From the NCBI GenBank assembly GCA_963704435.1, contig OY969902.1, positions 1 to 32,000 on the forward strand: 32,000 nucleotides of DNA, read 5' to 3'. The translations under genes and the position numbers were made by a program. This document shows positions 115 to 29,536 of this stretch, one piece after another. The DNA comes from an uncultured archaeon. GTDB lineage: Archaea; Micrarchaeota; Micrarchaeia; Micrarchaeales; CABMGC01. Positions within the stretch are counted from its first letter, which is position 1. The number at the start of each line of letters is the position of its first letter. The notes beneath the pieces are model-generated. The model was not told the DNA's origin, did no database searches, and worked only from the letters and a program-made list of their open reading frames with translations.

Positions 115-1011
115 GTGTATCGACCGCCTTGCCAGGAGTTGAAGACAATGGAAATCTATGAACTAAAGAATAAAATAATAGAAGTTTGGGCTGCGGCTAA
201 GGTGATCGTGCAGAAGTTCGGGCATACGAGGAAGTTTGCGAAGCATCTTGTCGCCTTTGCGATAAGGCAACATGAGAATCTTACCGACGTAAGACTCGCG
301 GAGTTCCTAGTCAGGGACCCGATAGGAAAGATCCTTGGTTACACGAGGAAGCCGCATCCGTCGACCTTCTCGAAGGTGCGGGAACGGTCGGATGCGGAGA
401 TGTTTGCGGAACTGCACAACTGGATAGTGCAGGACCGGATGAAATCAAGGCAACTGCGACTTATCGTGCAGGACAGTACCGACGTCTTCGCATATTCGCG
501 CAAGGACGGCGATGCGAGGTGGGGGCACAGAACTCCGTCAAGGAAAGAACAACTGATGCAAAACCTCGGCAATGGGAAAGAACTGTTCTTCGGTTATAAA
601 CCACATGTAATCGTAGAAGCCGAGACGGAAACGCCACTTGCAATTGAGGTCATACCTGCGAACACAAACGACAAGAAGATGTTCTGGCCGCTGTACGACA
701 GAGTAAAGAAGACCTTTCAACTGCAGTATCAGTCAAAATACATTGCGGATGCACAGTACCACGCATCAGCGATAAGGATGCAGTTGCGCGACGATGGCCT
801 AACTCCAGTAATCCCGAGAAGCGGCAACAAGTATCTGAAAACAGAGAACCCGAAGGATCCGGAGTATGGGAAGAGGTGGGCCGTCGAACACCTCTTTGCA
901 AGGTTGAAGGAGCTGTTCGGGCTTGCAAAGAACAGGTTCGTTGGCATAAAGAAGGTCAGGATTCACGTGTTTTCCTGCCTCCTCGCAAACCTGATCGAAT
1001 ACGTGATGTGA
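115..1011 (+). CDS. DDE transposase, IS4/IS5-like
   Basis: 298 aa. The C-terminal block YGKRWAVEHLFARLK fits the Y-x2-R-x3-E-x6-K signature of IS4/IS5 transposases exactly. Candidate catalytic acidic residues sit in IVQDSTD and YIADAQY. The ORF lies between terminal inverted repeats. Confidence 0.85.
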   Translation: MYRPPCQELKTMEIYELKNKIIEVWAAAKVIVQKFGHTRKFAKHLVAFAIRQHENLTDVRLAEFLVRDPIGKILGYTRKPHPSTFSKVRERSDAEMFAELHNWIVQDRMKSRQLRLIVQDSTDVFAYSRKDGDARWGHRTPSRKEQLMQNLGNGKELFFGYKPHVIVEAETETPLAIEVIPANTNDKKMFWPLYDRVKKTFQLQYQSKYIADAQYHASAIRMQLRDDGLTPVIPRSGNKYLKTENPKDPEYGKRWAVEHLFARLKELFGLAKNRFVGIKKVRIHVFSCLLANLIEYVM

Positions 1012-3223: not shown

Positions 3224-4579
3224 TTACGGCTTAGCCCTTTTCGCCAGCCCAGATTCCTCGTTAGCCTGCCCCCTTCCCACCCCAACATAGAGAAAGCCGC
3301 AGGCGGCCATCTTGTCTTTGTCTAGCATGTTCAGCGGGTCTATGATTACTGGGTGCGACATCCTGGATTTAAGCTTTGCAAAGTCGAGGTCCCTAAACTC
3401 TGGCCATGCAGTGAGGAAAAGCAGTGCATCTGAAGAGTCAGCGACAGAACCCGCATCAGCGCACCTCTTGAAATTAGCTTCCCTCGTCATGTCGCTGAGA
3501 TCCGCCTGCGGGTCGTAAGCCTTGATTGACGCTCCTTTTCTAACAAGCCCCGCGATTATATCGATGGAAGTGGAGTGCCTAACGGCGCTCGTGCCGGGCT
3601 TGTATGCAAGACCAAACACTCCTATGCGCAACCCTCTGACCTTGCCAAAGATTTGCTTGAGCTTATTTCCGACTATCAGGTTCTGGCTGACATTCACGCG
3701 CATCATTGAGTCGAGCAGGGTAGTCTCAACGCCATTCTTCTTCCCCAGCTCCCTAAGGACGTTCACATCCCTTTCCAAGTGCCCGCCCCCGAAGCCGAGT
3801 CCAGGGCGCAGGAGCGCGTACTTCCCTATTCTTGGGTCTAGGCGCAGCGCCTCGACTACTCGGAATGCGTCTATTCCTAGCCCGTCGCAGAGGTTGCCGA
3901 GCTCATTCGCCAAGCTTACCTCGCACGCAAGGAATGCGTTTACTGAGTGCTTCACCATCTCCGCCGTCCTGAGGTCGACCTTTATCTTCGGTGATGTGAC
4001 GAATCTGTAGATCCGTTCGGCCTTCTTGATATCCTTACTGTTGGTGCCTCCAATCACTAGAAAATCGGGTGATTTGAACCGCGCAATTGCATCACCAAGC
4101 TTAATATTTTCAGGGACGCAGACGATCCCTAAGTCAAGCGCAGGCCTCCTTCTCTTGACTAATGCCCTTATCTGCTCGCATGTGCCAACCGGAACCTGGC
4201 TGCTTACGACCAACAGAGTACCGTTACGGAGGTAAGGAACGGCCCTTGTTATGCTTTGGAGAATGGGCGACAGGTCCGGCAAGCCATTCTCCTTTACCGG
4301 CGTGTCAAATGCGATGGCCACGTAGCCTGCGCCAGCCAATCCAGAGCGGAAGTCGGACGTAAACGAGAGCATGCCTTTCCTTTCCTGCTCCTTGACGAGC
4401 TTGGCCAGCCCTGGCTCCTGGACGGGAGGGATTCCGTTCCTGAGCCTTGAAATGGTCTCGGGGTTTGGGTCGATGCCGACCACGCTGTTGCCGCATGCGG
4501 ACAGGCAGGCTGCAGTAACTGTTCCGAGATGCCAGAGTCCAATTACAGCTACATTCCCCTCTTTATCGATGCCTTTCAT
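3224..4579 (-). CDS. UDP-glucose/GDP-mannose dehydrogenase-family protein, divergent (canonical catalytic Cys position is His)
   Basis: 451 aa with the three-domain layout of nucleotide-sugar 6-dehydrogenases. Family-like blocks include AEMVKHSVNAFLA, GLGFGGGHLERD and GLAYKPGTS. The N-terminal dinucleotide motif reads IGLWHLG instead of GxGYVG. The active-site motif reads GGGHLERD instead of GG(S/x)C(F/L)PKD. Confidence 0.75.
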   Translation of the reverse strand: MKGIDKEGNVAVIGLWHLGTVTAACLSACGNSVVGIDPNPETISRLRNGIPPVQEPGLAKLVKEQERKGMLSFTSDFRSGLAGAGYVAIAFDTPVKENGLPDLSPILQSITRAVPYLRNGTLLVVSSQVPVGTCEQIRALVKRRRPALDLGIVCVPENIKLGDAIARFKSPDFLVIGGTNSKDIKKAERIYRFVTSPKIKVDLRTAEMVKHSVNAFLACEVSLANELGNLCDGLGIDAFRVVEALRLDPRIGKYALLRPGLGFGGGHLERDVNVLRELGKKNGVETTLLDSMMRVNVSQNLIVGNKLKQIFGKVRGLRIGVFGLAYKPGTSAVRHSTSIDIIAGLVRKGASIKAYDPQADLSDMTREANFKRCADAGSVADSSDALLFLTAWPEFRDLDFAKLKSRMSHPVIIDPLNMLDKDKMAACGFLYVGVGRGQANEESGLAKRAKP

Positions 4580-5710: not shown

Positions 5711-6397
5711 TCATATCTTCTCGAGATTCAGGCATGCTACAGAATTCGTCACAGAATCGAACTTGGAACTCGCTGCTTGCAATTCACCCACTTTGCTTAT
5801 CTTCGTGCGGGACTTTATCTGGTAGAATTCCTTGCTTAATACTCTGAAGCCCTTAAGCAGCTCTGCCAGATCTTTGCTGTCGTAGACTCTCTGGAAGTTA
5901 TCTCTCACTTGATGCATTCCACACGGCGCAGTGAATATGAACTGGCCTCTTGGTTTCAGCAGTCCGTGCACCTTCGCAACAGCTTTCTTGTCCGCATCGA
6001 GGTCATACTTAGCGTTGCCGTAGTGGAACAGGCCAAAGTGCTCTATGGCGCTGATGTTTATTGCAATGTCGAATTTCTTTTGAAAATAGTATTCAAGGAA
6101 ATCCGCTCTGATGAATTCAAGGTTATCGTGCTTGTAGTTGTACTCCTGCATATCTATCCCAGTCACGGCATATCCCAGCGCAGCAAGCCTTACGGGGTTT
6201 ATGCTTTCGCTGCATCCGATATCTAATACGCTAAGCGGAGGAGGACGCAGGTTCTTGAAAAGGAAGGGGATCTCGACGATCCTCTCGCTGTAGTACGCGG
6301 CTGTCCATGGCAGGTGGCCATAGCCTTCATTTACTATGTAGCCTTTCATAAAGCGATTGCAGCCAGCACTCCATGCCTTGCCAAATATGCTCATCAT
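5711..6397 (-). CDS. Class I SAM-dependent methyltransferase
   Basis: Motif I VLDIGCSES, followed by an acidic post-I residue in VTGIDM, then a FDIAINISAIEH motif II/III-like block. Confidence 0.7.
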   Translation of the reverse strand: MMSIFGKAWSAGCNRFMKGYIVNEGYGHLPWTAAYYSERIVEIPFLFKNLRPPPLSVLDIGCSESINPVRLAALGYAVTGIDMQEYNYKHDNLEFIRADFLEYYFQKKFDIAINISAIEHFGLFHYGNAKYDLDADKKAVAKVHGLLKPRGQFIFTAPCGMHQVRDNFQRVYDSKDLAELLKGFRVLSKEFYQIKSRTKISKVGELQAASSKFDSVTNSVACLNLEKI

Positions 6398-6489
6398 AAC
6401 GCCTCTCTTACCCTAACACAGCAGGTTACAAATTTTTCAATGTGCATCTACCTGATATGGATTTATGGCATTCAGTTCTTTAATCTTCA

Positions 6490-7215
6490 CTAAAGATTTT
6501 TCATCTTTGCATAGAGATAGCCTGTCTGTGCCTTTCTATCATCTATGCTGGCGCACGGGCTAGTATGAGAGACGGCGAATCCGAGATTTTTAAGCTTCCT
6601 CTCGATATTCAGATATCCTTGGTGATACTCCATCACTATTCTGTCATATTCCGCCAGTCTCTTTGCATTGAGTATGATCTCATACTCGCAGCCCTCGCAG
6701 TCGATTTTCAGCTCTTTCAATTCTCCTTTGAACTCTTCGGCGAACTCGTCGACGGTCCTGCTCGACGCCGCCTTGTTGAAGAGCTTCGCGTTGGTTATGC
6801 CATTCAGAGAGAGGTTCTTCCGTGCAAGCAGATACCTTTTCTCATCCGGGTCATAGGAGTGCAGCGCCTTGGCCCCTTTTAGGGAGAAATATATTGGGGT
6901 GTCTCCGTTTCCGGTGCCTATGTCGAGCACGGCTTTGCCTTTCGATTCTAGCCAGCCATATGCTTGGCGGACAAAGACCTCTTCGTAATCGACATCGCCT
7001 GTGAATAGCAGGGGCTTGCCGCCGTAGTCTCCATTGTTGAACTCGACCTTCGTTATCTCTCCGTCAACCTCCACCCTGACTTTGCCCAGGGCATTCATAC
7101 GGGGAGATCTTGGAAATAGCTTAAGCTTGGCTAAGCCTGCGTAATGGAGCAGAATCGGTTTTGGGCTGATTCTAAGCCTGAGATAGTCGAGTTTTGTTAT
7201 GTTGGCCATCCGCAT
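6490..7215 (-). CDS. FkbM-family methyltransferase
   Basis: VLDIGTGNGDTPIYF (SAM motif) and LKIDCEGCEYEI (the FkbM-type K-x-D-x-E-G-x-E block). The track start at 7254 is a GTG. ATG 7215 is preceded by GGAGG 5 nt upstream and is preferred. Confidence 0.75.
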   Translation of the reverse strand: MRMANITKLDYLRLRISPKPILLHYAGLAKLKLFPRSPRMNALGKVRVEVDGEITKVEFNNGDYGGKPLLFTGDVDYEEVFVRQAYGWLESKGKAVLDIGTGNGDTPIYFSLKGAKALHSYDPDEKRYLLARKNLSLNGITNAKLFNKAASSRTVDEFAEEFKGELKELKIDCEGCEYEIILNAKRLAEYDRIVMEYHQGYLNIERKLKNLGFAVSHTSPCASIDDRKAQTGYLYAKMKNL

Positions 7216-9975: not shown

Positions 9976-10958
9976 GACTGCGTCACCACTCTGCTCCCCT
10001 CGGAGTCGAAGTTGAAGTGCAGCTCGGGCAGGCCCGCGCCCGCCATCGCGCGCCTTAGACTGACGTTGTCAATGGCATAGAACATCAGGAAACCACCCCC
10101 TCCCGCGCCTATTAGCTTGCCTCCGCGTGCGCCGTTCTTCAGTGCAATCCTATACCATTCGTCTACCTTGCCGTTGCTGATCTCCTTAGAGCGCTGCCTC
10201 TTGTGCTCCCAGTGGACGTTCATTAGCTCCGCGAACAGGTCGAGGTCTCCGGATTCGAGCGCGTCCCTGCTGTCGTAGCCTAGCTTCTTGGTGAAGTGCA
10301 GGTTGTCGATCATTGCCGTGTCCTTGCTCTTGCTCTTGTCGTCCTGGTCCTTCAGCACCGCGGATGCCGACCTCGAGAAGCCTGTGAAGAAGAGCAGAAG
10401 GTTATCCTCTAGGCTGTGGCGCGTGTCCTCGGAGAGCCTGAGCGGCCTGACATCCACGGTGTCGTCCCTGCGGAAAGTGAAGCAGTTTATCCCTCCGAAC
10501 GCCGAGACATATTGGTCCTGCTTTCCCACTGGCTCCTTGAGCACATCTATCTCTATGTGACACGCCTCCTTCGCAAGTTCAGCCGGAGTCACGGAGTCCC
10601 TTTTGTGGGAATGCAATGCCTTTAGCATGGCGCACGCGAAGCTCCCAGATGATCCCATACCCGTGCCTGCCGGCACGTCCGCGATGCTCACTATCTCAAG
10701 GTGCGGATTCGGTATGTTCACAAGATTGAGCGCTTCGCGCACTATCGGATGCTTGATCTCGCCTACGGAGGCAACGCGTTCCATCTGCGAGTATTTCACT
10801 ATGATCTCATCCCTGCTGAAGATCGGCTGCACCGCCACGTACACGTACTTGTCTATGGCCGCGGAGATCAGGAACCCCTCGTGCTCCCTGTAATAAGACG
10901 GAAGGTCCGTGCCTCCTCCCCCGAGGGGGACGCGGAGCGGGCTGCGTGCTATGATCAT
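9972..10958 (-). CDS. hddA: GHMP-family sugar kinase, likely D-glycero-alpha-D-manno-heptose-7-phosphate kinase
   Basis: RVPLGGGGTDLPSYY N-terminal block and the GHMP motif PAGTGMGSSGS. It is the first gene of the operon, with a TATA-like box 36 nt upstream. Confidence 0.75.
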   Translation of the reverse strand: MIIARSPLRVPLGGGGTDLPSYYREHEGFLISAAIDKYVYVAVQPIFSRDEIIVKYSQMERVASVGEIKHPIVREALNLVNIPNPHLEIVSIADVPAGTGMGSSGSFACAMLKALHSHKRDSVTPAELAKEACHIEIDVLKEPVGKQDQYVSAFGGINCFTFRRDDTVDVRPLRLSEDTRHSLEDNLLLFFTGFSRSASAVLKDQDDKSKSKDTAMIDNLHFTKKLGYDSRDALESGDLDLFAELMNVHWEHKRQRSKEISNGKVDEWYRIALKNGARGGKLIGAGGGGFLMFYAIDNVSLRRAMAGAGLPELHFNFDSEGSRVVTQS

Positions 10959-23289: not shown

Positions 23290-24795
23290 ATGGCAAAAAC
23301 GTATTTGGACATTGTGAAGTACATGGTGGTGGCGAAGTTCACCATCGACGGCCTGGTGGACAAGCCCGACATAATCGGAGCGGTCTTCGGGCAGACGGAA
23401 GGCCTGCTCGGCGACGACCTCGACCTGAGGGAGCTGCAGAAGGGTGGCAAGATCGGCAGGATAGAGATAGAGGTCTCGCCTTCGGGGAGCAAGACCTACG
23501 GCAGGCTGCTGCTGCCGGCGTCGCTGGACCGCGTCGAGACCTGCATACTCGGCGCAGCCGTCGAATCAGTCGACCGCGTAGGCCCGTTCGAAGCCAAGTT
23601 CTTGGTCGAGAAGGTCGAGGACACGAGGGCCGCGAAGCGCATGAAGATACTCGAGAGGGCGAAGGGCCTGATGAAGCAGCTGCTGAGCACCGAGATACCT
23701 GACAGCAAGGAGCTGGCGGAGATGGTCCAGCGGGAGGTCAAGTCTAGCGAGATAACGACATACGGTCCGGAGAAGCTCCCTGCGGGGCCGGACGTCGGGA
23801 AGGCCGACGACGTGATAATAGTCGAGGGCAGGGCCGATGTCATAACGCTGCTGAAGAACGACATAACCAACGCGATAGCAGTGGGAGGGGCCACGTCGAA
23901 CATACCCCCGAGCATAATCAAGCTCGCGACCGAGAAGGAATCGACGATATTCGTCGACGGGGACAGGGGCGGGGACCTGGTCATAAGGTCGCTGCTCAAT
24001 GCGGTCGAGTTCGACTTCGCCACCAAGGCGCCTGACGGGAAGGAGGTCGAGGAGCTAACCCGTAAGGAGATAATAAAGGCGCTGCGCTCCCGGGTGCCCG
24101 TGGACCAGCTCGGCAAGAGCAGGGAACGCGACGCGAACAGCCACAGGGACCACAGGGATCGCAGGGACGAAAGGGATGGCAGGGACAACAGGGATTCAAG
24201 GCACGGCCCGTACGGGGGAGCGCGGCAGCCGCTGCCTCCGCCGCCAGTGAGGCCGCCGATGCCTCCGTCCCAGGAGGGGCCGGATCAGTTCCCGCAGCAG
24301 CCGCAGTTCGGTCCGGAGGGCAGGCAGGGCCAGAGCGACTCCGACTTCATGGATTCCGGAGAGGCTCCGCATCTCAAGGACATCAGGAGCGACACCGACG
24401 AGGAGGAGGCCTCCGACGAGGGCGCGCTGCAGAGGATTGAGCCGTCGCGCATGGGCAGGCCGGAAGGCGAGCCCATGCCCAGGCCCGCGCTGGAGAGCGT
24501 GCTGCTGGGCCAGCTGGCCAACGGCCTCACGGACCTTTCCGGGACGCTGAGGAGCAGGCTCTACTCGTCTGACGGAAGCGTGGTAAAGGAAGTCCCGATA
24601 AGGGAGCTCCTCTCCGTGCTGCAGGACGCGAGGTCGACCTATGCGGTGGTGCTGGACGGGGTGATAACCCAGAGGCTGGTCGAGCTGTCGCTCGAGAAGG
24701 GCGTGAAGGCCATATACGGAGTCAGGGCGAACCCGATGCCAAGGAGGCATCCCGAGCTGATACTCTACACGAAGGAGCAGGGCAGGATAGAATGA
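23290..24795 (+). CDS. dnaG: Archaeal DnaG primase (Toprim), with a long low-complexity insert
   Basis: The N-terminus KYMVVAKFTIDGLVDKPDIIGAVFGQTEGLLGDDLDLRELQKGGKIGRIEIEV is the hallmark archaeal DnaG block. The Toprim domain is IIVEGRADVITL ... IFVDGDRGGDLV. A conserved C-terminal region (YAVVLDGVITQRLVELS) follows an R/D- and Pro-rich insert of about 125 aa. Confidence 0.9.
   Translation: MAKTYLDIVKYMVVAKFTIDGLVDKPDIIGAVFGQTEGLLGDDLDLRELQKGGKIGRIEIEVSPSGSKTYGRLLLPASLDRVETCILGAAVESVDRVGPFEAKFLVEKVEDTRAAKRMKILERAKGLMKQLLSTEIPDSKELAEMVQREVKSSEITTYGPEKLPAGPDVGKADDVIIVEGRADVITLLKNDITNAIAVGGATSNIPPSIIKLATEKESTIFVDGDRGGDLVIRSLLNAVEFDFATKAPDGKEVEELTRKEIIKALRSRVPVDQLGKSRERDANSHRDHRDRRDERDGRDNRDSRHGPYGGARQPLPPPPVRPPMPPSQEGPDQFPQQPQFGPEGRQGQSDSDFMDSGEAPHLKDIRSDTDEEEASDEGALQRIEPSRMGRPEGEPMPRPALESVLLGQLANGLTDLSGTLRSRLYSSDGSVVKEVPIRELLSVLQDARSTYAVVLDGVITQRLVELSLEKGVKAIYGVRANPMPRRHPELILYTKEQGRIE
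24142..24204 (+). repeat. Seven tandem 9-bp units (NNN-AGG-GAY) inside dnaG
   Basis: CACAGGGAC CACAGGGAT CGCAGGGAC GAAAGGGAT GGCAGGGAC AACAGGGAT TCAAGGCAC. The units are in frame and encode HRD HRD RRD ERD GRD NRD SRH. Confidence 0.85.
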
Positions 24796-24885: not shown

Positions 24886-25092
24886 TTGAAGGGAAAATTC
24901 ACGATAATAATAACTAAAGGCGAAGTCGCTTTCGTCGCATATTGCCAGGAACTTGGCATAGCAAGCCAAGGAAAGACCGTAAGGGAGGCGAAGAAGAACG
25001 TAGCTGAGGCAATATCTCTTTATCTGGAAGAGGCAAAAGACTCAAAACTTGCAAAAAGGCGTCTTCCGCTGGTCGCAACAATAAGCGTCTGA
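24886..25092 (+). CDS. hicB: HicB-family antitoxin
   Basis: 68 aa. FTIIITKGEVAFVAYCQELGIASQGKTVREAKKNVAEAISLYLEE matches the HicB/UPF0150 N-terminal fold pattern. It has a TTG start preceded by GGTGGTG and sits immediately upstream of hicA. Confidence 0.75.
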   Translation: MKGKFTIIITKGEVAFVAYCQELGIASQGKTVREAKKNVAEAISLYLEEAKDSKLAKRRLPLVATISV

Positions 25093-25102
25093 GGTAGTCG
25101 CG

Positions 25103-25330
25103 ATGCCCAAGCTGCCCGTGCTTTCTGCGGCCGAGGTATTGAAGGTCCTGACTAAGGAAGGATTCAGCATATCGAGGCAGCGGGGAAGTCACATAATTCT
25201 CATAAAGTTCGTAAATGGCAAAAAGAGAATAGTAGTTGTGCCTTCTCACAGGGAGCTGGATCCCGGAACACTGCTTTCTATAATATCGCAATCAGGACTT
25301 ACGAAAGACGATTTCTTGAAATTGCTGTAG
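25103..25330 (+). CDS. hicA: HicA-family mRNA interferase toxin
   Basis: 75 aa. The blocks are KVLTKEGFSISRQRGSHIIL (the HicA G-S-H motif) and VVVPSHRELDPGTLLSIISQSGL. Confidence 0.8.
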   Translation: MPKLPVLSAAEVLKVLTKEGFSISRQRGSHIILIKFVNGKKRIVVVPSHRELDPGTLLSIISQSGLTKDDFLKLL

Positions 25331-25349: not shown

Positions 25350-26486
25350 TTATATTGCGTCCGGGTTGTCTGAGACGACGACCTTGGCCTCGTTCAGTCG
25401 GGGTACGAGCCGCCTCATGGCCAGGCTCTTGTACTGGCGCGTGTGGCGCATGTCGAAGTCTCGTATGCCGAGGTGACCCACCAGCACCTTCCCCATCCTT
25501 GAGTGAGAGACATCCACTCCCCTCAGCGAAGACTTCATCATCCCTAGGAACTTGTGCATTCTGGCGTCCGATTCAAACCTCGCGACGACAAGCATGCCGA
25601 CCGGGCAGGGCGTATTGCACATGAAGACGCACTCGTTCTCCCTGTCCTTGTACTCCCCTATGAGCTTCATGAACCACGCGTCCCGCGACTCTTCGAACGC
25701 CTTCGCGCTGGTGACCTTCACCGTGAACAGCACGCTCGCCATCTTCTTGGGCTTCTCCTCGAAGTAGGTGATCCTGTTGAGTATACCCGTCCTGACCAGG
25801 CGGTCGTAGGCATAGAGCATCTGCGCAGGTCCCTGGTTCGACTTCCTGCCCACCTCGCTGAACGTCATGCGCCCGGACTCGTTGAGCCCGATGAGCAGGT
25901 TCTTATATGAGTCGAAGATGTCGAACTGGTTGATGAGCCTATCGCTCAGCGGGAAGAAGCCGAAGCTGCCCCATATCCTGCTGACATGGATGAGCGGCTT
26001 GTGCTTGCCGAGCCTCTTGCTGAGGTTCCCGGCGAACTCGAGCGCGTCCTCGTAGTTCCTTGCGATCGAGTATATCATCAGGTCCTGCGCGCCGCTCAGC
26101 CTAGCAGCGAACTGCGGCAGCGGGGAAGCCCCCACAGCGTCGGCTATCTCGCTGTCGTCGGGCACCGGCCCGGTGAACTTCACGAATGCCATGTACTCTC
26201 CGAAGCCAGCGACCGGCGGCTCCTCCATCGCCTCCGCGAGTATCCCCCTCTTGGTCCTCAGCCTTGCCTTCTTTATGAACTCCCACTTCCAGAGGTGCTC
26301 TATGTCGACCTCGGGCACGAACCTGAGCCCGTGCTCTTCGACGAGCTCATTGAACAGTCCGTAGGCGCTCCTGCGCGCGATCCCCATCTTGCCCGCGATG
26401 ATGTTCATGCTGGCCCGGGCGTCGACGCTGAGGAGCCTGAGCATCCTCTCCTTGGCCATCTCGCGCTTGCTCCCCACCGTCTCCAT
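25350..26486 (-). CDS. Tandem Lrp/AsnC-like transcriptional regulator (two wHTH plus effector-domain-like halves)
   Basis: Two HTH-like segments are present: SMNIIAGKMGIARRSAYGLFNELVEEHGL and TFSEVGRKSNQGPAQMLYAYDRLVRTGIL. Each is followed by a beta-alpha-beta-looking segment of about 100 aa. The assignment is by pattern only. Confidence 0.55.
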   Translation of the reverse strand: METVGSKREMAKERMLRLLSVDARASMNIIAGKMGIARRSAYGLFNELVEEHGLRFVPEVDIEHLWKWEFIKKARLRTKRGILAEAMEEPPVAGFGEYMAFVKFTGPVPDDSEIADAVGASPLPQFAARLSGAQDLMIYSIARNYEDALEFAGNLSKRLGKHKPLIHVSRIWGSFGFFPLSDRLINQFDIFDSYKNLLIGLNESGRMTFSEVGRKSNQGPAQMLYAYDRLVRTGILNRITYFEEKPKKMASVLFTVKVTSAKAFEESRDAWFMKLIGEYKDRENECVFMCNTPCPVGMLVVARFESDARMHKFLGMMKSSLRGVDVSHSRMGKVLVGHLGIRDFDMRHTRQYKSLAMRRLVPRLNEAKVVVSDNPDAI

Positions 26487-26510
26487 CTCTCGTGGTAATG
26501 AGGAACGAAT

Positions 26511-26520
26511 ATTTTTATAT
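26511..26520 (-). promoter_or_regulatory. TATA-box candidate for the regulator gene
   Basis: The minus strand reads ATATAAAAAT, 25-34 nt upstream of ATG 26486. It sits directly downstream of the orphan VIT1 3' fragment. Confidence 0.4.
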
Positions 26521-26533
26521 TGCTCGGCGGGCG

Positions 26534-26617
26534 CTATATGCTGACTCCGAAATGGATTCTCGCGAACGTCCCGAACAGTATCGTGATGAATGCCGCGCCG
26601 AGGGATATGGCGAGCAT
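26534..26617 (-). pseudogene. Orphan 3' fragment of a VIT1/CCC1 gene (last 27 codons plus stop)
   Basis: The minus strand reads MLAISLGAAFITILFGTFARIHFGVSI-stop(TAG). The intact gene end at 27985-28068 reads MLAISLGAAFITILFGTFARIYFGVSI-stop(TGA). Homology ends abruptly at 26617/26618 and no upstream coding sequence is present. Confidence 0.8.
26536..26617. repeat. Direct repeat copy A (82 bp)
   Basis: It matches 27987-28068 with 4 mismatches in 82 bp, at an offset of 1451 bp. Confidence 0.9.
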
Positions 26618-26652
26618 ACGGCTGCCTTCGCAGAATTTAATCTCAATTCTTC

Positions 26653-27915
26653 CTATACTACCTTATCCTGCAATAGAAATTTCCAGGCGGGGATCAATCT
26701 GACTTTTCCCCCATTAAGGCTGACTGATCTCTCGTCATTTTTAGTTATCATCAGGCCTCTATCAATGCCAAATTTTTCCATGAATTCTCTCAAGTATTTA
26801 AAGTCTCCAGGATTTATGGCCTCCCTGTATTTCACTTCTATGGGTACTCCGTCCCGGACGATGTCGATTTCTCCGCCATTCTTCCAGAAAGCCACGGCTT
26901 TTAATTTGTTAACGACGGCAGTCTCGACCATGCTCCCAAAAAATGCCTCATCGGCATTCAGCTTGTAAAGGTAGATTAGCGCATTGTCCGTAGGATAAGC
27001 TCTCTTTTTCTTTCTCAGGGTGGCCATACTGCCCTTTCTGAAGTTTCCCATGACGCGGATCAGGAAGCTTTCTCCAAGATAAACGAGATAATCTTTTATC
27101 ACCCGCCTGTCCTTGCCGAACTGCTTGCTCAGCGACTGGTAATCCACGTACATTCCCGGATTCGCGGATATCAGTTCGAGGAGCACCCTCAGGAATTCGG
27201 GGTCCTCTATTTTGAAGATTTTAGGTATGTCCTGGTACACGATTTTGTCCACGACAAGTGCCTTGATGTACTCTCTGAATTCCCTATTGCTTTCGAACAG
27301 GAAAGTTTCTGGAAAGCCTCCCTTCTCTACAAATTTAAGGAAGAGAGGCTTGATTTTCGTTTCGTACTTGAATTCACTCTCTTCGACGCCGCTGAACCTA
27401 AGATATTCTACGAAGTCGAACGTGTTCAAAACGAATTCGGAAATCCTTCCTGCCAGCGTCTCCTTCGTTTTTTTCCTTATAAAAAGGGATTCCGATCCGC
27501 TTATTATGAATTTGGCCTTTGGATACAGGTCGTAATATTTCTTTATCTCGTTCTCCCAATTGCCGCACTTCTGGATTTCGTCGAAGAAGATGTAGACCCT
27601 TTCTTCCCTGAAATCTTTTTTGTGGAACTCCCTGTACCCGTCAATGATTTCGCTTACCTTTGACTCGGTCTCATCGAAAGAGAAGAATAATATGTTCGTG
27701 GCGTCCGTTTTTCCCTCTATGAGGCTCTGGATCAGCTGGTATATTATCGTGGTCTTCCCAACCCTTCTCAGACCAGTAAGCGCCAGTATGAACTTGCTTT
27801 TGAGGCTCCTTTCCATTTCAAAATACGCGTTTCTCTTGAAGGGCAGTGCCAGTTCGGGGTCGACCTTTCCCCTCATCCACCAGTGGTTGAATTCTTCAAG
27901 TTTCGCTTTATCCAT
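26653..27915 (-). CDS. AAA+ ATPase of the AAA_14/DUF4143 class (COG1373-like)
   Basis: 420 aa. N-terminal FNHWW block, Walker A LTGLRRVGKTT, Walker B YIFFDEIQ, and a C-terminal region typical of the DUF4143-containing archaeal ATPases. GC is far lower than in the flanks. Confidence 0.85.
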   Translation of the reverse strand: MDKAKLEEFNHWWMRGKVDPELALPFKRNAYFEMERSLKSKFILALTGLRRVGKTTIIYQLIQSLIEGKTDATNILFFSFDETESKVSEIIDGYREFHKKDFREERVYIFFDEIQKCGNWENEIKKYYDLYPKAKFIISGSESLFIRKKTKETLAGRISEFVLNTFDFVEYLRFSGVEESEFKYETKIKPLFLKFVEKGGFPETFLFESNREFREYIKALVVDKIVYQDIPKIFKIEDPEFLRVLLELISANPGMYVDYQSLSKQFGKDRRVIKDYLVYLGESFLIRVMGNFRKGSMATLRKKKRAYPTDNALIYLYKLNADEAFFGSMVETAVVNKLKAVAFWKNGGEIDIVRDGVPIEVKYREAINPGDFKYLREFMEKFGIDRGLMITKNDERSVSLNGGKVRLIPAWKFLLQDKVV

Positions 27916-27942
27916 CGATATCTATGTACATTACAATGCGCT

Positions 27943-27952
27943 TATTTATTAA
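27943..27952 (-). promoter_or_regulatory. TATA-box candidate for the ATPase gene
   Basis: The minus strand reads TTAATAAATA, 28-37 nt upstream of ATG 27915. It is flanked by two copies of the palindrome ATGTACAT. Confidence 0.4.
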
Positions 27953-27984
27953 CTTTATGGTCATTCTGATGTACATGTTCTGGA

Positions 27985-28968
27985 TCATATGCTGACGCCG
28001 AAATAGATCCTCGCGAACGTCCCGAACAGTATCGTGATGAACGCCGCGCCGAGGGATATGGCGAGCATCTCGAAGGACCGCTTTCTCACGCTCGTGCCGC
28101 TGGTTATCGCGACTATGGTGGACGCCCCGACAAGCGCTACGCTCACCAGCACTATTGAAGTGGCTATCCCCCAAACGCCGCTCATGCCCGCGAGGAACGG
28201 CAGCACGGCGATCAGTGCGCCGATGAAATAGTACGCCCCGGTGTGGTACGCCTCCCTTCTCGGGGACGCTACGCCGTCCTTTTCCCCTTTTCCCTTCCCG
28301 ACGCCCTTGACAAGGTTCTCCGACTTCGCGGACAGGTAGACCCCGCCGGCCATCGACAGGGTGCCGGAGATGCCCGCGATCATGCCTATGATCACGACTA
28401 TCAGGCTGCTCGTCGCGACCGTCGCCAGCCCGGCTATCACCGCCAGTATCTCGACGAGGCCGTCGTTGAGGCCGAGTATCGTCGACTGCATATAATCGAG
28501 CTTGCTCTCGTATCCCTCCACGGACTTCGCGAGGGCGGCCTCGTGCCCCTCCTCCTCGGCTATTATCGCGCGGGCGGAGCGCCTCTCCTTCTCCCCTAGT
28601 CCGCCTCCCTCGAGGGACGCCCTGTAGTTGGCGAGCCCCTCGGTCTCGTTCCTCTCGAGAAGCCGCACCACGAAGGCGGTGCCCAGCACCTTCTTCATGA
28701 TCTCGAACGCATGAATCCGCAGCCCCACGAGCGCGGGGCATCTCACGTCCTTCCCCCCGTCGCCGAGCAGGGACCGCCATATGGCGATGTGGCCCTTCTC
28801 CTCCGAGGCGAGCCGCGAAAGCAGAGCCTTAAGCTCCCTGTCGTCCTCTGCGCCGGCGAGCGCGGAATATACCGCGTGGTCGAGCATCTCGCCCCTTAGG
28901 AATCCCCTCTCCAGCGCCTCCTTGCTGACCATAAAACCATTTATCCTTTCGTTCAGTATTGCATCCAT
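27985..28968 (-). CDS. Ferritin-like domain / VIT1 (CCC1) family iron-manganese transporter
   Basis: The N-terminal ferritin/rubrerythrin-like half has two E-x-x-H sites (SEEKGHIAIW, AEEEGHEAAL). The C-terminal membrane half has the VIT1 block STILGLNDGLVEILAVIAGLA and further TM helices. An alternative start is ATG 28932. Confidence 0.85.
   Translation of the reverse strand: MDAILNERINGFMVSKEALERGFLRGEMLDHAVYSALAGAEDDRELKALLSRLASEEKGHIAIWRSLLGDGGKDVRCPALVGLRIHAFEIMKKVLGTAFVVRLLERNETEGLANYRASLEGGGLGEKERRSARAIIAEEEGHEAALAKSVEGYESKLDYMQSTILGLNDGLVEILAVIAGLATVATSSLIVVIIGMIAGISGTLSMAGGVYLSAKSENLVKGVGKGKGEKDGVASPRREAYHTGAYYFIGALIAVLPFLAGMSGVWGIATSIVLVSVALVGASTIVAITSGTSVRKRSFEMLAISLGAAFITILFGTFARIYFGVSI
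27987..28068. repeat. Direct repeat copy B (82 bp; the 3' end of the intact VIT1 gene)
   Basis: See copy A. Confidence 0.9.
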
Positions 28969-29536
28969 GGGTCTTTTAAGCGTTTTCGGCCCTCGCGACC
29001 GCTCGTATTCGGGAAAGCATACCTACAGGCACGTCGAGCGCCTGCTCAGGCGCGAGCGGAACCTGATGATAGTGTCTCCGTACATAGACGACTACTACGC
29101 GAGGTACCTGATGAGGCACTGCAGGGGCAAGAACGTCAGGGTGCTGTCGTCGTCGATGAGGCCAGAGGCGGCAAGGCGCCTGAGGGGAAGGGACATGGGT
29201 CCTGCCGTCACCTTCGCGATGCTCGTAGCGGCGGCGAACCTGGCACTCTTCTTCCTGGGCAGGGCGTTTCCGGCGTTCGTCGCCATTTCCGTTGCCGCGG
29301 CGGCTGCGCTGGTCGTTTTCTCCTACCGGCGCAGGAACGGGATATCGCTTCGGGTCCCGAGGGACTTCGTGCACGCCAAGATGTACGTCGGTGACGATAT
29401 GGCGATAGAGGGCTCCGCGAACCTCACCTATGCCGGCATGCACGGGAACGTGGAGCACGTCAGCGTCACGTTCGACAGGGAAAGGATAGTGGAGCTCAAG
29501 AGGCAGTTCGCGAGCCTGTGGAACGTGGCGCGATGA
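28967..29536 (+). CDS. Single-HKD phospholipase D-superfamily protein with an internal TM hairpin
   Basis: The HKD motif is HAKMYVGDDMAIEGSAN (H-x-K-x4-D-x6-G-S-x-N). Two hydrophobic helices (GPAVTFAMLVAAANLALFFLG and AFPAFVAISVAAAAALVVF) lie between the N-terminal half and the HKD motif. The start is set at ATG 28967 because the track extension 28781-28966 is antisense to the VIT1 gene. Confidence 0.65.
   Translation: MGLLSVFGPRDRSYSGKHTYRHVERLLRRERNLMIVSPYIDDYYARYLMRHCRGKNVRVLSSSMRPEAARRLRGRDMGPAVTFAMLVAAANLALFFLGRAFPAFVAISVAAAAALVVFSYRRRNGISLRVPRDFVHAKMYVGDDMAIEGSANLTYAGMHGNVEHVSVTFDRERIVELKRQFASLWNVAR

Follow-up and report, generated by a model that had tools for sequence, protein, structure and literature searches.

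A defence-candidate ATPase gene inserted at the VIT1 stop codon between two copies of the gene's 3' end in an archaeal contig, and hints of a wider route of spread

The 32,000-nt stretch of DNA analysed here (contig OY969902.1 of an uncultured archaeon; the whole stretch is hereafter called the window, and W in the lists) carries on its minus strand the gene of the iron transporter VIT1, the gene of an ATPase that is a candidate antiviral protein, and the gene of a regulator, in that order, with the ATPase gene bracketed by two copies of the 3' end of VIT1. The organism is placed among Micrarchaeota because homologues of the regulator are either named Lrp-family regulators or assigned to that group. 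All sequences used (related loci carry labels from L001 upwards) are metagenomic contigs, with repeat boundaries taken from pairwise alignment. The features of the locus are as follows.

27985..28968, minus strand: VIT1, the host gene, intact, encoding a ferritin-like/rubrerythrin-VIT1 iron transporter of 327 amino acids (Pfam VIT1, 2e-23, and Rubrerythrin; synteny)
27985..28068, minus strand: repeat copy B, the functional VIT1 3' end, 27 codons plus TGA (repeat search, ortholog comparison)
27916..27984, minus strand: promoter module of the cassette, forming the left end of the insert (conserved upstream of the ATPase clade)
26653..27915, minus strand: cargo ATPase of 420 amino acids, AAA_14 plus DUF4143 (Pfam; PADLOC PDC-S01)
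26618..26652, minus strand: 35-nt insert tail from the ATPase stop codon to copy A, unconserved among cassettes and without likeness to VIT1
26534..26617, minus strand: repeat copy A, a displaced, non-functional VIT1 3' end with a TAG stop, joined to the ancestral VIT1-regulator junction
26487..26533, minus strand: promoter region of the regulator, with a TATA-like ATATAAAAATA at 26510-26520 (alignment with the promoters of empty sites)
25350..26486, minus strand: regulator of 378 amino acids, Lrp/AsnC-like and Micrarchaeota-specific, the right border of the hotspot (weak HTH_AsnC match)

The repeat search gave an 82-nt direct repeat, 26536-26617 against 27987-28068, with 78 of 82 positions identical (95%) at a spacing of 1451 bp; with the stop codons included, the units span 26534-26617 (copy A) and 27985-28068 (copy B). 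Both encode, on the minus strand, MLAISLGAAFITILFGTFARI(Y/H)FGVSI followed by a stop. Three codon differences are synonymous (GCG/GCA, AGG/AGA and GGC/GGA), the fourth (TAT/CAT) replaces Tyr with His, and the stop codons are TGA in copy B and TAG in copy A. Homology breaks off sharply at the Met codon on one side and within the stop codon on the other. Local alignment of the upstream against the downstream flank scored 72, compared with a shuffle maximum of 11.5 and a score of 9 in inverted orientation. The sole gene between the copies is that of the 420-residue AAA_14 plus DUF4143 protein, and the GC content is 0.41-0.48 over this gene against 0.57-0.66 in the flanks, and at third codon positions (GC3) the ATPase gene has 0.60, compared with 0.83 in VIT1 and 0.87 in the regulator gene. 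An earlier sequence-only reading had described the duplicated VIT1 end with its four mismatches, differing stop codons and sharp ends, as well as the lower GC content of the ATPase gene, and every checkable detail of that description was right. The same repeat structure was found in six independently assembled contigs from different samples, with both copies base-for-base identical to the window in L001, L003, L004 and L005, and with copy A adjoining the ATPase gene, so that the insertion is present, in L063. An assembly artefact, which the earlier reading had named as one way in which it could fail, is ruled out because both copies recur in independent assemblies.

Nine orthologous loci were recovered, with the common synteny M1 peptidase, peroxiredoxin, PLD, VIT1, regulator and DnaG. 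Five that have been sequenced (L011, L055, L056, L057 and L058), together with one ENA contig that is listed without DNA, are empty at the site occupied in the window. At the five sequenced empty sites the VIT1 stop codon is TAG and the regulator starts about 50 bp further on, the junction reading '...AGCAT(A/C) TAG (g)cggcg...' and then continuing into the regulator promoter. Copy A and its flank in the window read '...AGCATA TAG cgcccgcc...aatataaaaatattcgtt', with the same structure. Because it reproduces the junction of the empty sites in this way, copy A represents the displaced original end of VIT1, and the 1.37-kb segment at 26618-27984 is an insertion beside VIT1. The insertion of a single gene had been proposed from the window alone, and both the empty sites, where VIT1 abuts the regulator, and the ancestral junction at copy A now support it; the prediction that the regulator TATA box would lie close to the VIT1 stop codon if the insert were removed also held, the box being 13 nt past the copy-A stop as at the empty sites. 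None of the nine related loci contained a second VIT1 gene or a duplication without the ATPase, and the alternative of a local tandem duplication was thus not supported.

With regards to the sequence of the two copies, copy B holds the ortholog-consensus state at three of the four variable sites, and the ortholog comparison placed all three polarisable changes (AGG>AGA, TAT>CAT and GGC>GGA) on copy A, where the Tyr>His change hits a conserved Tyr. The copies share lineage-specific bases absent from all orthologs, copy A being 95% identical to copy B compared with 81-86% to the orthologs. Nucleotide conservation of VIT1 among lineages (86-93%) sets in within about 5 nt of the Met codon at which the repeat starts (28026-28071 compared with orthologs), and the repeat unit coincides with a conserved block coding for the last transmembrane helix of VIT1, which would be a natural homology anchor between diverged genomes. 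At L007, VIT1 (6001-6985) is split over two frames (6001-~6530 and 6524-6985), as either a frameshifted pseudogene or a sequencing error.

Four of the VIT1-regulator loci are occupied, namely those of the window, L009, L007 and L008. The window and L009 carry the ATPase, 79% identical to each other, and have in common a TGA stop of VIT1 seen at no other locus; L007 and L008 carry a different, three-gene cargo, the outer genes of which are homologous (55% and 78.5% amino acid identity), and have a TAA stop. At all four, the foreign DNA begins 1-2 nt inside the VIT1 stop codon. In the window, the first two bases of the insert (GA) finish the new stop codon, and copy B passes into the cassette at exactly the position seen in L009. 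In neighbour-joining trees of single proteins, both cargo types were scattered over the host tree as represented by the regulator, (L058,(((L056,L057),(L011,L007)),L009),L055),(L008,W)), so that occupancy conflicts with the host phylogeny; the comparison of ATPase and host phylogenies suggested by the earlier reading thereby gave the disagreement that lateral arrival predicts. Between the three-gene cargo and the regulator promoter of L007 lies, furthermore, a degenerate relic of the left end of an ATPase cassette (10322-10402; 'CCAGTATATGTTGAAATGTGTACATTC...' compared with 'TCAGCATATGATTAAATGTGTACATTC...' in L009), aligned by eye with about 24 of 31 bases matching and having two GTACAT palindromes at the 17-nt spacing of the promoter module. 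This relic implies successive insertions at the same nucleotide with loss of the ATPase gene and, taken together with the scattered cargo and a short VIT1-end remnant in L009, that cargo was gained, replaced and precisely lost several times. The ATPases of the window and L009 are 79% identical and the flanking genes 61-67%; with differing rates between proteins and saturated synonymous sites, these figures fit an independent gain of the ATPase at the two loci as well as vertical descent.

The cargo protein matched AAA_14 (6e-33) and DUF4143 (1e-16) in Pfam and, over residues 26-417 and thus full-length, the PADLOC model PDLC04787 (PDC-S01, 2e-61). Across 35 homologues, G48-T55 (Walker A), D112/E113 (Walker B), E349, D351 and K362 are invariant and E360 is near-invariant, the C-terminal PD-(D/E)xK motif being E349/D351...E360-x-K362. 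An AlphaFold2 model (predicted local distance difference test score, pLDDT, 86) gave Foldseek matches to the archaeal AAA+ ATPase SSO1545, to the RFC clamp loaders, to Orc1/Cdc6 and to the STAND proteins Apaf-1 and Avs4, and points to an AAA+/STAND-like fold with a winged-helix region; no recombinase or transposase fold was found among the best 50 of 428 hits at E <= 0.001, and a PDB sequence search gave no relative. The protein is of the PDC-S01 type, combining an AAA+ ATPase with a PD-(D/E)xK nuclease, and is as such a candidate antiviral protein, with a defence role that would follow from its family membership. DUF4143 is catalogued as a PD-(D/E)XK family, with no function assigned there (PMC3424549). 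PDC-S01 (COG1373) has been described as a very abundant, Archaea-enriched, horizontally spread and unvalidated defence candidate, ranking fourth in frequency among the (candidate) defence families of prokaryotes, with DPANN archaea depending on compact single-gene systems of such kind (PMC12988326).

The closest relatives of the cargo, at 65-71% identity, occur in low-GC DPANN archaea, and in a neighbour-joining tree the proteins of the window, L009 and L059 formed a mid-GC subclade nested among low-GC DPANN ATPases. From this nesting it follows that the ATPase came from low-GC DPANN lineages and was then partly ameliorated; the low GC content noted earlier thus reflects this origin and not a very recent arrival. 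The third member of the subclade, in L059 (1-1781), is 73% identical, has a near-identical proximal promoter and lies between a gene resembling a divergent ftsZ and one resembling a polX (identified by eye from the translated flanks). No repeat flanks it, and the cassette therefore occurs at other sites without duplication. In L060, a 7.5-kb IMG/VR contig classed as viral, an ATPase of 60% identity and a 470-amino acid gene lie between stretches of a highly repetitive surface-protein gene; the contig may either have an insertion in this gene or be DPANN DNA wrongly classed as viral.

The left end of the insert consists of an operator-like site O1, GTACATCAGAATGACC, at 27959-27974, a TATA-like TTAATAAAT at 27944-27952 and a second operator-like site O2, GCGCATTGTAATGTAC, at 27926-27941. 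This module, GTNCAT-N4-ATGACC / AAAGTTTATAAAT / GTACATTCTAATGTAC, was found upstream of essentially every ATPase of the clade (L009, L012-L046), with two near-palindromes of about 16 nt (GTACAT-N4-ATGNNC) flanking the TATA box at fixed spacing, and its architecture is kept between hosts of 25% and 62% GC. The exact O1 match is unique in the window, where 0.21 chance matches would be expected at up to one mismatch. The near-palindromes probably serve as an operator pair for autoregulation via the winged-helix region of the ATPase.

The footprint seen in the window recurs elsewhere. We scanned 31 members of the ATPase clade for which both flanks were available; since all low-GC loci were retrieved via the ATPase, the co-occurrence of other cassettes with it is biased. 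The repeat-bracketed ATPases of the clade, at least five of them in low-GC DPANN contigs besides that of the window, were, with repeat length and location, the following.

W: 82 nt, VIT1 3' end
L034: about 126 nt, 3' end of a giant open reading frame (ORF)
L039: 97 nt, promoter and first 7 codons of the downstream gene
L046: 124 nt, 3' end of a gene in convergent orientation
L021: 85 nt in one copy, 42 nt in the partial second
L023: 138 nt, truncated in one copy where the contig ends

The same bracketing was seen for four divergent AAA_14/DUF4143 paralogues, with repeats of 140 and 83 nt in L022, of 80 nt in L012 and of 97 nt, perfectly matched, in L036. It was also seen for a Bro-N gene (PADLOC PDC-S13, 1e-121) in L023 and L045, with repeats of 138 and 70 nt, and for a PDC-S04/SoFic-type Fic gene in L021. 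As a control, only two of 78 other ORFs of at least 250 amino acids, both of them Bro-N genes, scored at least 30, compared with 7 of 36 ATPase-like ORFs. In most cases one boundary of the repeat unit lies 0-3 nt from the host stop codon or at a gene boundary. The window itself has no array; arrays of the form repeat-gene-repeat-gene-repeat, with cassettes in mixed orientation, were present in L021, L022, L023 and L036. The single-gene cassettes there, as also in L012, are set apart by copies of one host gene end. That of L023 reads T(125-262)-BroN-T(1215-1352)-ATPase-T(2866-), where T is the repeat unit, and L022 has three copies of a coding end for a C-terminal membrane anchor (2391-2530, 3945-4084 and 5775-5856) with ATPase paralogues between them, none of the three being visibly joined to a gene body. 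The earlier suggestion that other copies of the ATPase would also be flanked by duplicated gene ends was thus borne out, with the qualification that the footprint is not specific to this ATPase, as the Bro-N and Fic genes show.

The codon differences between repeat copies were informative at the following loci.

L034: 15 synonymous, 1 non-synonymous; third positions hold 16 of the 17 base differences
L012: 7 synonymous, 3 non-synonymous
L022, two pairs: 4 and 3 synonymous, 1 and 1 non-synonymous, plus an in-frame indel
W: 3 synonymous, 1 non-synonymous
L046: 1 synonymous, 4 non-synonymous

In L034, L012 and L022 together, 27 of 33 differing codons are synonymous. The pooled test, for which the gap-free stretch of L034 (13:1) was taken, gave a synonymous to non-synonymous ratio of 30:7 when leaving out L046 (31:11 with L046 included), and P was about 7e-5 for the 30:7 set against a model with one copy neutral and the other fully constrained. 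With a duplicated target and a drifting spare copy, changes would be expected at all codon positions. The bias suggests that the copies in those loci diverged while both were functional coding ends and that one of them was imported from another copy of the gene, be it the ortholog of a different lineage or perhaps a paralogue. A replacement 3' end carried in by the incoming DNA, as the sequence-only reading had it, is accordingly a suggestion that the three loci support and for which the four differences of the window are too few.

With regards to functions that could have moved the cassette, no tyrosine or serine recombinase was found anywhere in the 32-kb window, and no integrase within +/-4-10 kb of any Pfam-annotated locus. 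Terminal inverted repeats were not found either, the scores being at the shuffle median for 8 inserts with unconserved tails, and the absence of integrase, transposase and inverted repeats noted earlier was thereby confirmed for the insert and its neighbourhood. The junctions of 12 cassettes had no common motif or att core, with repeat units deriving from unrelated host genes, and the inverted symmetry of the repeat ends in the window (ATGCTCGCC...GGCGTCAGCAT) was not seen in other units. No tRNA or other RNA targets were found in the repeat units. When 12 units were folded as single-stranded DNA, no hairpin appeared (z -1.8 to +0.5 compared with shuffles), and an attC or integron reading was rejected. 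The interpretation of the duplication as a scar of site-specific integration therefore keeps its gene-3'-end repeat at both borders and its intact target, and lacks a recombinase and a common att core. A viral or plasmid vehicle was likewise rejected, scans of viral contigs having given one uninformative ATPase match and no Bro-N match, and the matching ends of L006, considered as a possible circle, were explained by a de Bruijn-graph break inside the repeat. An all-against-all comparison of flanks gave no empty or alternative alleles among the low-GC loci.

Some neighbouring genes deserve mention. The only recognisable mobility gene of the window is that of a DDE_Tnp_1 (IS4/IS5-type) transposase at 115-1011 (plus strand), about 25 kb off, in an ORF near the window edge. 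At 28781-29536 (plus strand), divergent from VIT1, lies a PLD-family nuclease-like gene with weak PADLOC hits to DpdK (1e-11) and DrmC; it is probably not an accessory gene, because its synteny is kept in all relatives. The plus-strand gene at 23290-24795 encodes an archaeal DnaG-like Toprim protein of 501 amino acids with a long low-complexity insertion rich in Arg/Asp/His and Pro/Gln (...RDHRDRRDERDGRDNRDSRHG...PPPPVRPPMPP...). A HicB-like/HicA toxin-antitoxin pair of lower GC content (0.47-0.50) occupies the gap from DnaG to the regulator at 24886-25330 (plus strand), and no direct repeat was seen flanking this pair in the window. The same gap holds PIN-MazE in L058, DUF2283 in L011, other small genes in L055 and L056 and nothing in L008, and is thus a further variable spot, separated from the ATPase hotspot by a single gene.

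To account for these observations we favour, at even confidence, recombination anchored in homology that displaced the resident 3' end of the gene and brought the ATPase along as cargo. Segment 26618-27984 would be a self-contained and horizontally exchanged cassette, consisting of its own promoter and one PDC-S01-type gene. Incoming DNA bearing a VIT1 3' end joined to the cassette would recombine with the resident VIT1 via the homology of about 80 bp, either by a Campbell-type single crossover of a circularised fragment or by a one-sided, homology-facilitated illegitimate join. VIT1 would thereby keep an intact end (copy B), its stop completed by the insert bases GA, and the resident end (copy A, with TAG) would be shifted downstream together with the regulator promoter and now be decaying. 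Recombination between the copies could in turn delete the cassette and restore a perfect empty site; such recombination, as proposed here, is why the empty sites would be precise and the distribution patchy. The predicted junction of the empty allele is VIT1...AGCATATAG joined to CGCCCGCC, and that of the circle is ...GGCAGCCGT joined to ATGCTCGCC...AGCATAT, followed directly by GATCCAGAAC. The ATPase is regarded as cargo and not as recombinase, given that Bro-N and Fic genes show the same footprint and that it has no recombinase fold.

Several observations weigh against this account. Repeat lengths cluster narrowly, at 70-140 nt, which is not what fragments with random ends would give and is suggestive of a ruler and hence of an enzyme, and new repeat units on unrelated host genes need an illegitimate founding event beyond homology. 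Most members of the ATPase clade have no detectable repeat, as is also the case for L059, so a long repeat is not obligatory, and past the ATPase of L009 there is only a 13-nt remnant of the VIT1 end. Neither a circle nor an empty allele was found in contigs of the window's own population, L063 being occupied. In the window, the 3:1 ratio of synonymous changes is not significant and the four differences are too few to argue for import; all polarisable changes being on copy A fits a duplication of the locus's own sequence followed by decay equally well, a pattern that would also be expected with a donor from the same population. The synonymous bias in L034, L012 and L022 could stem from gene conversion by paralogous surface-protein 3' ends. 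Finally, the ATPase may act in trans on the Bro-N and Fic cassettes, since the low-GC loci were selected via the ATPase.

One alternative, which we consider rather unlikely, is that the ATPase is itself a minimal selfish element. Its AAA+ oligomer would place the PD-(D/E)xK nuclease so that gene termini are cut in staggered fashion at two positions 70-140 nt from each other, the cassette would be joined, and gap repair would produce a very long target-site duplication, with Bro-N and Fic genes mobilised in trans. The invariant nuclease and ATPase residues, the narrow range of repeat lengths and the perfect 97-nt copy in L036 agree with this, as does the fact that both copies in the window are the host's own sequence with only the relic diverged; AAA_14/DUF4143 genes of at least four subfamilies are moreover the commonest cargo, and Bro-N and Fic cassettes were seen only in arrays also holding an ATPase. 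However, terminal inverted repeats and conserved ends are lacking, both the left and the right insert boundaries vary, and the fold resembles sensor or switch ATPases and not transposition proteins. Synonymous-biased differences would be unexpected for a drifting spare copy, the non-ATPase cargos share the footprint, two repeat-flanked paralogues read LIQVSY and AINVTY in place of the canonical E-x-K motif, and for most of the clade no repeat was detected.

A true att site, used by a site-specific recombinase (tyrosine, serine or Xer-type) encoded elsewhere or on a helper element, or left as the remnant of an integrative element without integrase, is in our judgement unlikely. Such a site would liken the locus to integron cassettes and clusters of attC sites lacking integron-integrases (CALINs), cis-mobilisable elements, pdif modules or tycheposon-like islands, and would explain why different cargos share the exact insertion point at the VIT1 stop codon, why repeat boundaries are sharp and reproducible within arrays, and why cassettes accrete in tandem as at att sites; integrons without an adjacent integrase have also been reported in Nanoarchaeota (PMC9668308). 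It sits poorly with the lack of an integrase near the Pfam-annotated loci and in the window, of a core or motif common to the repeat units of different loci, of attC hairpin folding and of tRNA targets, and with cassettes that bring their own promoters and lie in either orientation. A purely local origin, in which VIT1 or its end was duplicated in tandem, the second copy was then largely deleted or overwritten and the ATPase arrived independently, or in which the structure is an artefact of assembly, we regard as effectively refuted. Copies A and B are indeed each other's closest relatives, but no related locus has a second VIT1 or an ATPase-less duplication, copy A lies on the ancestral junction and the cassette follows copy B from the very nucleotide used in L009, the same architecture occurs on unrelated host genes, and the structure is identical in independent assemblies.

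The spread of such genes is puzzling, as DPANN archaea are mostly without recognisable integrases, plasmids or transposons, and the recurrence in related archaea hints at an undescribed route for it. Tentatively, and with clearly less confidence than in homology-anchored displacement at VIT1, we propose that single-gene defence-candidate cassettes of DPANN archaea (PDC-S01, Bro-N/PDC-S13 and Fic), each with its own promoter, make up a distinct and so far undescribed class of minimal mobile cassette, move between the termini of host genes by using or generating gene-end repeats of 70-140 bp, and build up integron-like arrays without integrase, attC or inverted repeats, and that PDC-S01 may drive the process. 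If that were true, PDC-S01, among the commonest prokaryotic defence candidates, would be a selfish mobile gene, and if an enzyme sets the length of 70-140 nt, a new recombination activity remains to be found. The locus with its empty sites and recurrent cassettes is in any case a concrete and testable footprint of gene-end displacement at defined hotspots, reversible via the repeats, and a conserved promoter/operator module is supplied for the ATPase clade.

Each of the elements is known on its own, be it the insertion that duplicates a gene end, the displacement array or the defence hotspot. Their combination in promoter-bearing single defence-candidate genes of DPANN archaea, with host gene-end repeats of 70-140 nt and arrays but no integrase, attC or inverted repeats, was not found described in the literature searched. 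A transposon with target-site duplication differs in having defined element ends. At defence-island hotspots, the same intergenic position between syntenic core genes is likewise empty or filled with different cargo, but the site seen here is fixed with nucleotide precision within a stop codon and has in the window a duplicated gene end. The window protein matches the PDC-S01 family models end to end with ATPase and PD-(D/E)xK residues kept, whereas direct repeats are not mentioned for that family in PMC12988326, and the literature searched describes neither a palindrome-flanked conserved promoter nor a mode of insertion for it. Islands that insert at gene 3' ends through tyrosine-recombinase att sites and bring a replacement end, such as those at tRNA and tmRNA genes and the tycheposons (bioRxiv 10.1101/2020.12.28.424599), similarly bracket compositionally distinct DNA with a gene-3'-end repeat, leave the target gene intact and can excise precisely; here, in contrast, there is no nearby integrase or common att core, the insert is a single 1.3-kb gene, and promoters and 5' ends are targeted as well (L039, L023/L045). 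Integron cassettes and CALINs, including those of Archaea (PMC9668308), also form single-gene arrays with repeats of about 60-140 nt, are rich in toxin-antitoxin and defence-type genes and often lack a linked integrase, but the repeats seen here are host gene ends and not attC sites, the cassettes have their own promoters in mixed orientation, and no IntI or attI was found.

The system most alike in logic is that of the rhs, contact-dependent inhibition (CDI) and type VI secretion system (T6SS) loci, where displaced 3' ends and orphan arrays have been attributed to homology-facilitated illegitimate recombination (PMC5361080). In both cases, incoming DNA anchored by homology brings a new gene end together with cargo, the resident 3' end is shifted downstream and kept, and repeated events give arrays with stubs of the conserved segment, as here in L021, L022, L023 and L036. 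The copies at the bacterial loci come from other strains and not from duplication in place, to which the synonymous bias in the relatives would correspond, the four differences of the window being too few to tell. The bacterial loci gain a different toxin tip and an immunity gene. Here, in contrast, the replaced end leaves the encoded protein the same, an unrelated housekeeping gene serves as host gene, an independent, promoter-bearing defence candidate is carried as cargo, and the hosts are DPANN archaea. Homology-anchored displacement at VIT1 would in this way extend the displacement-array logic of bacterial toxin loci to archaeal immune genes.

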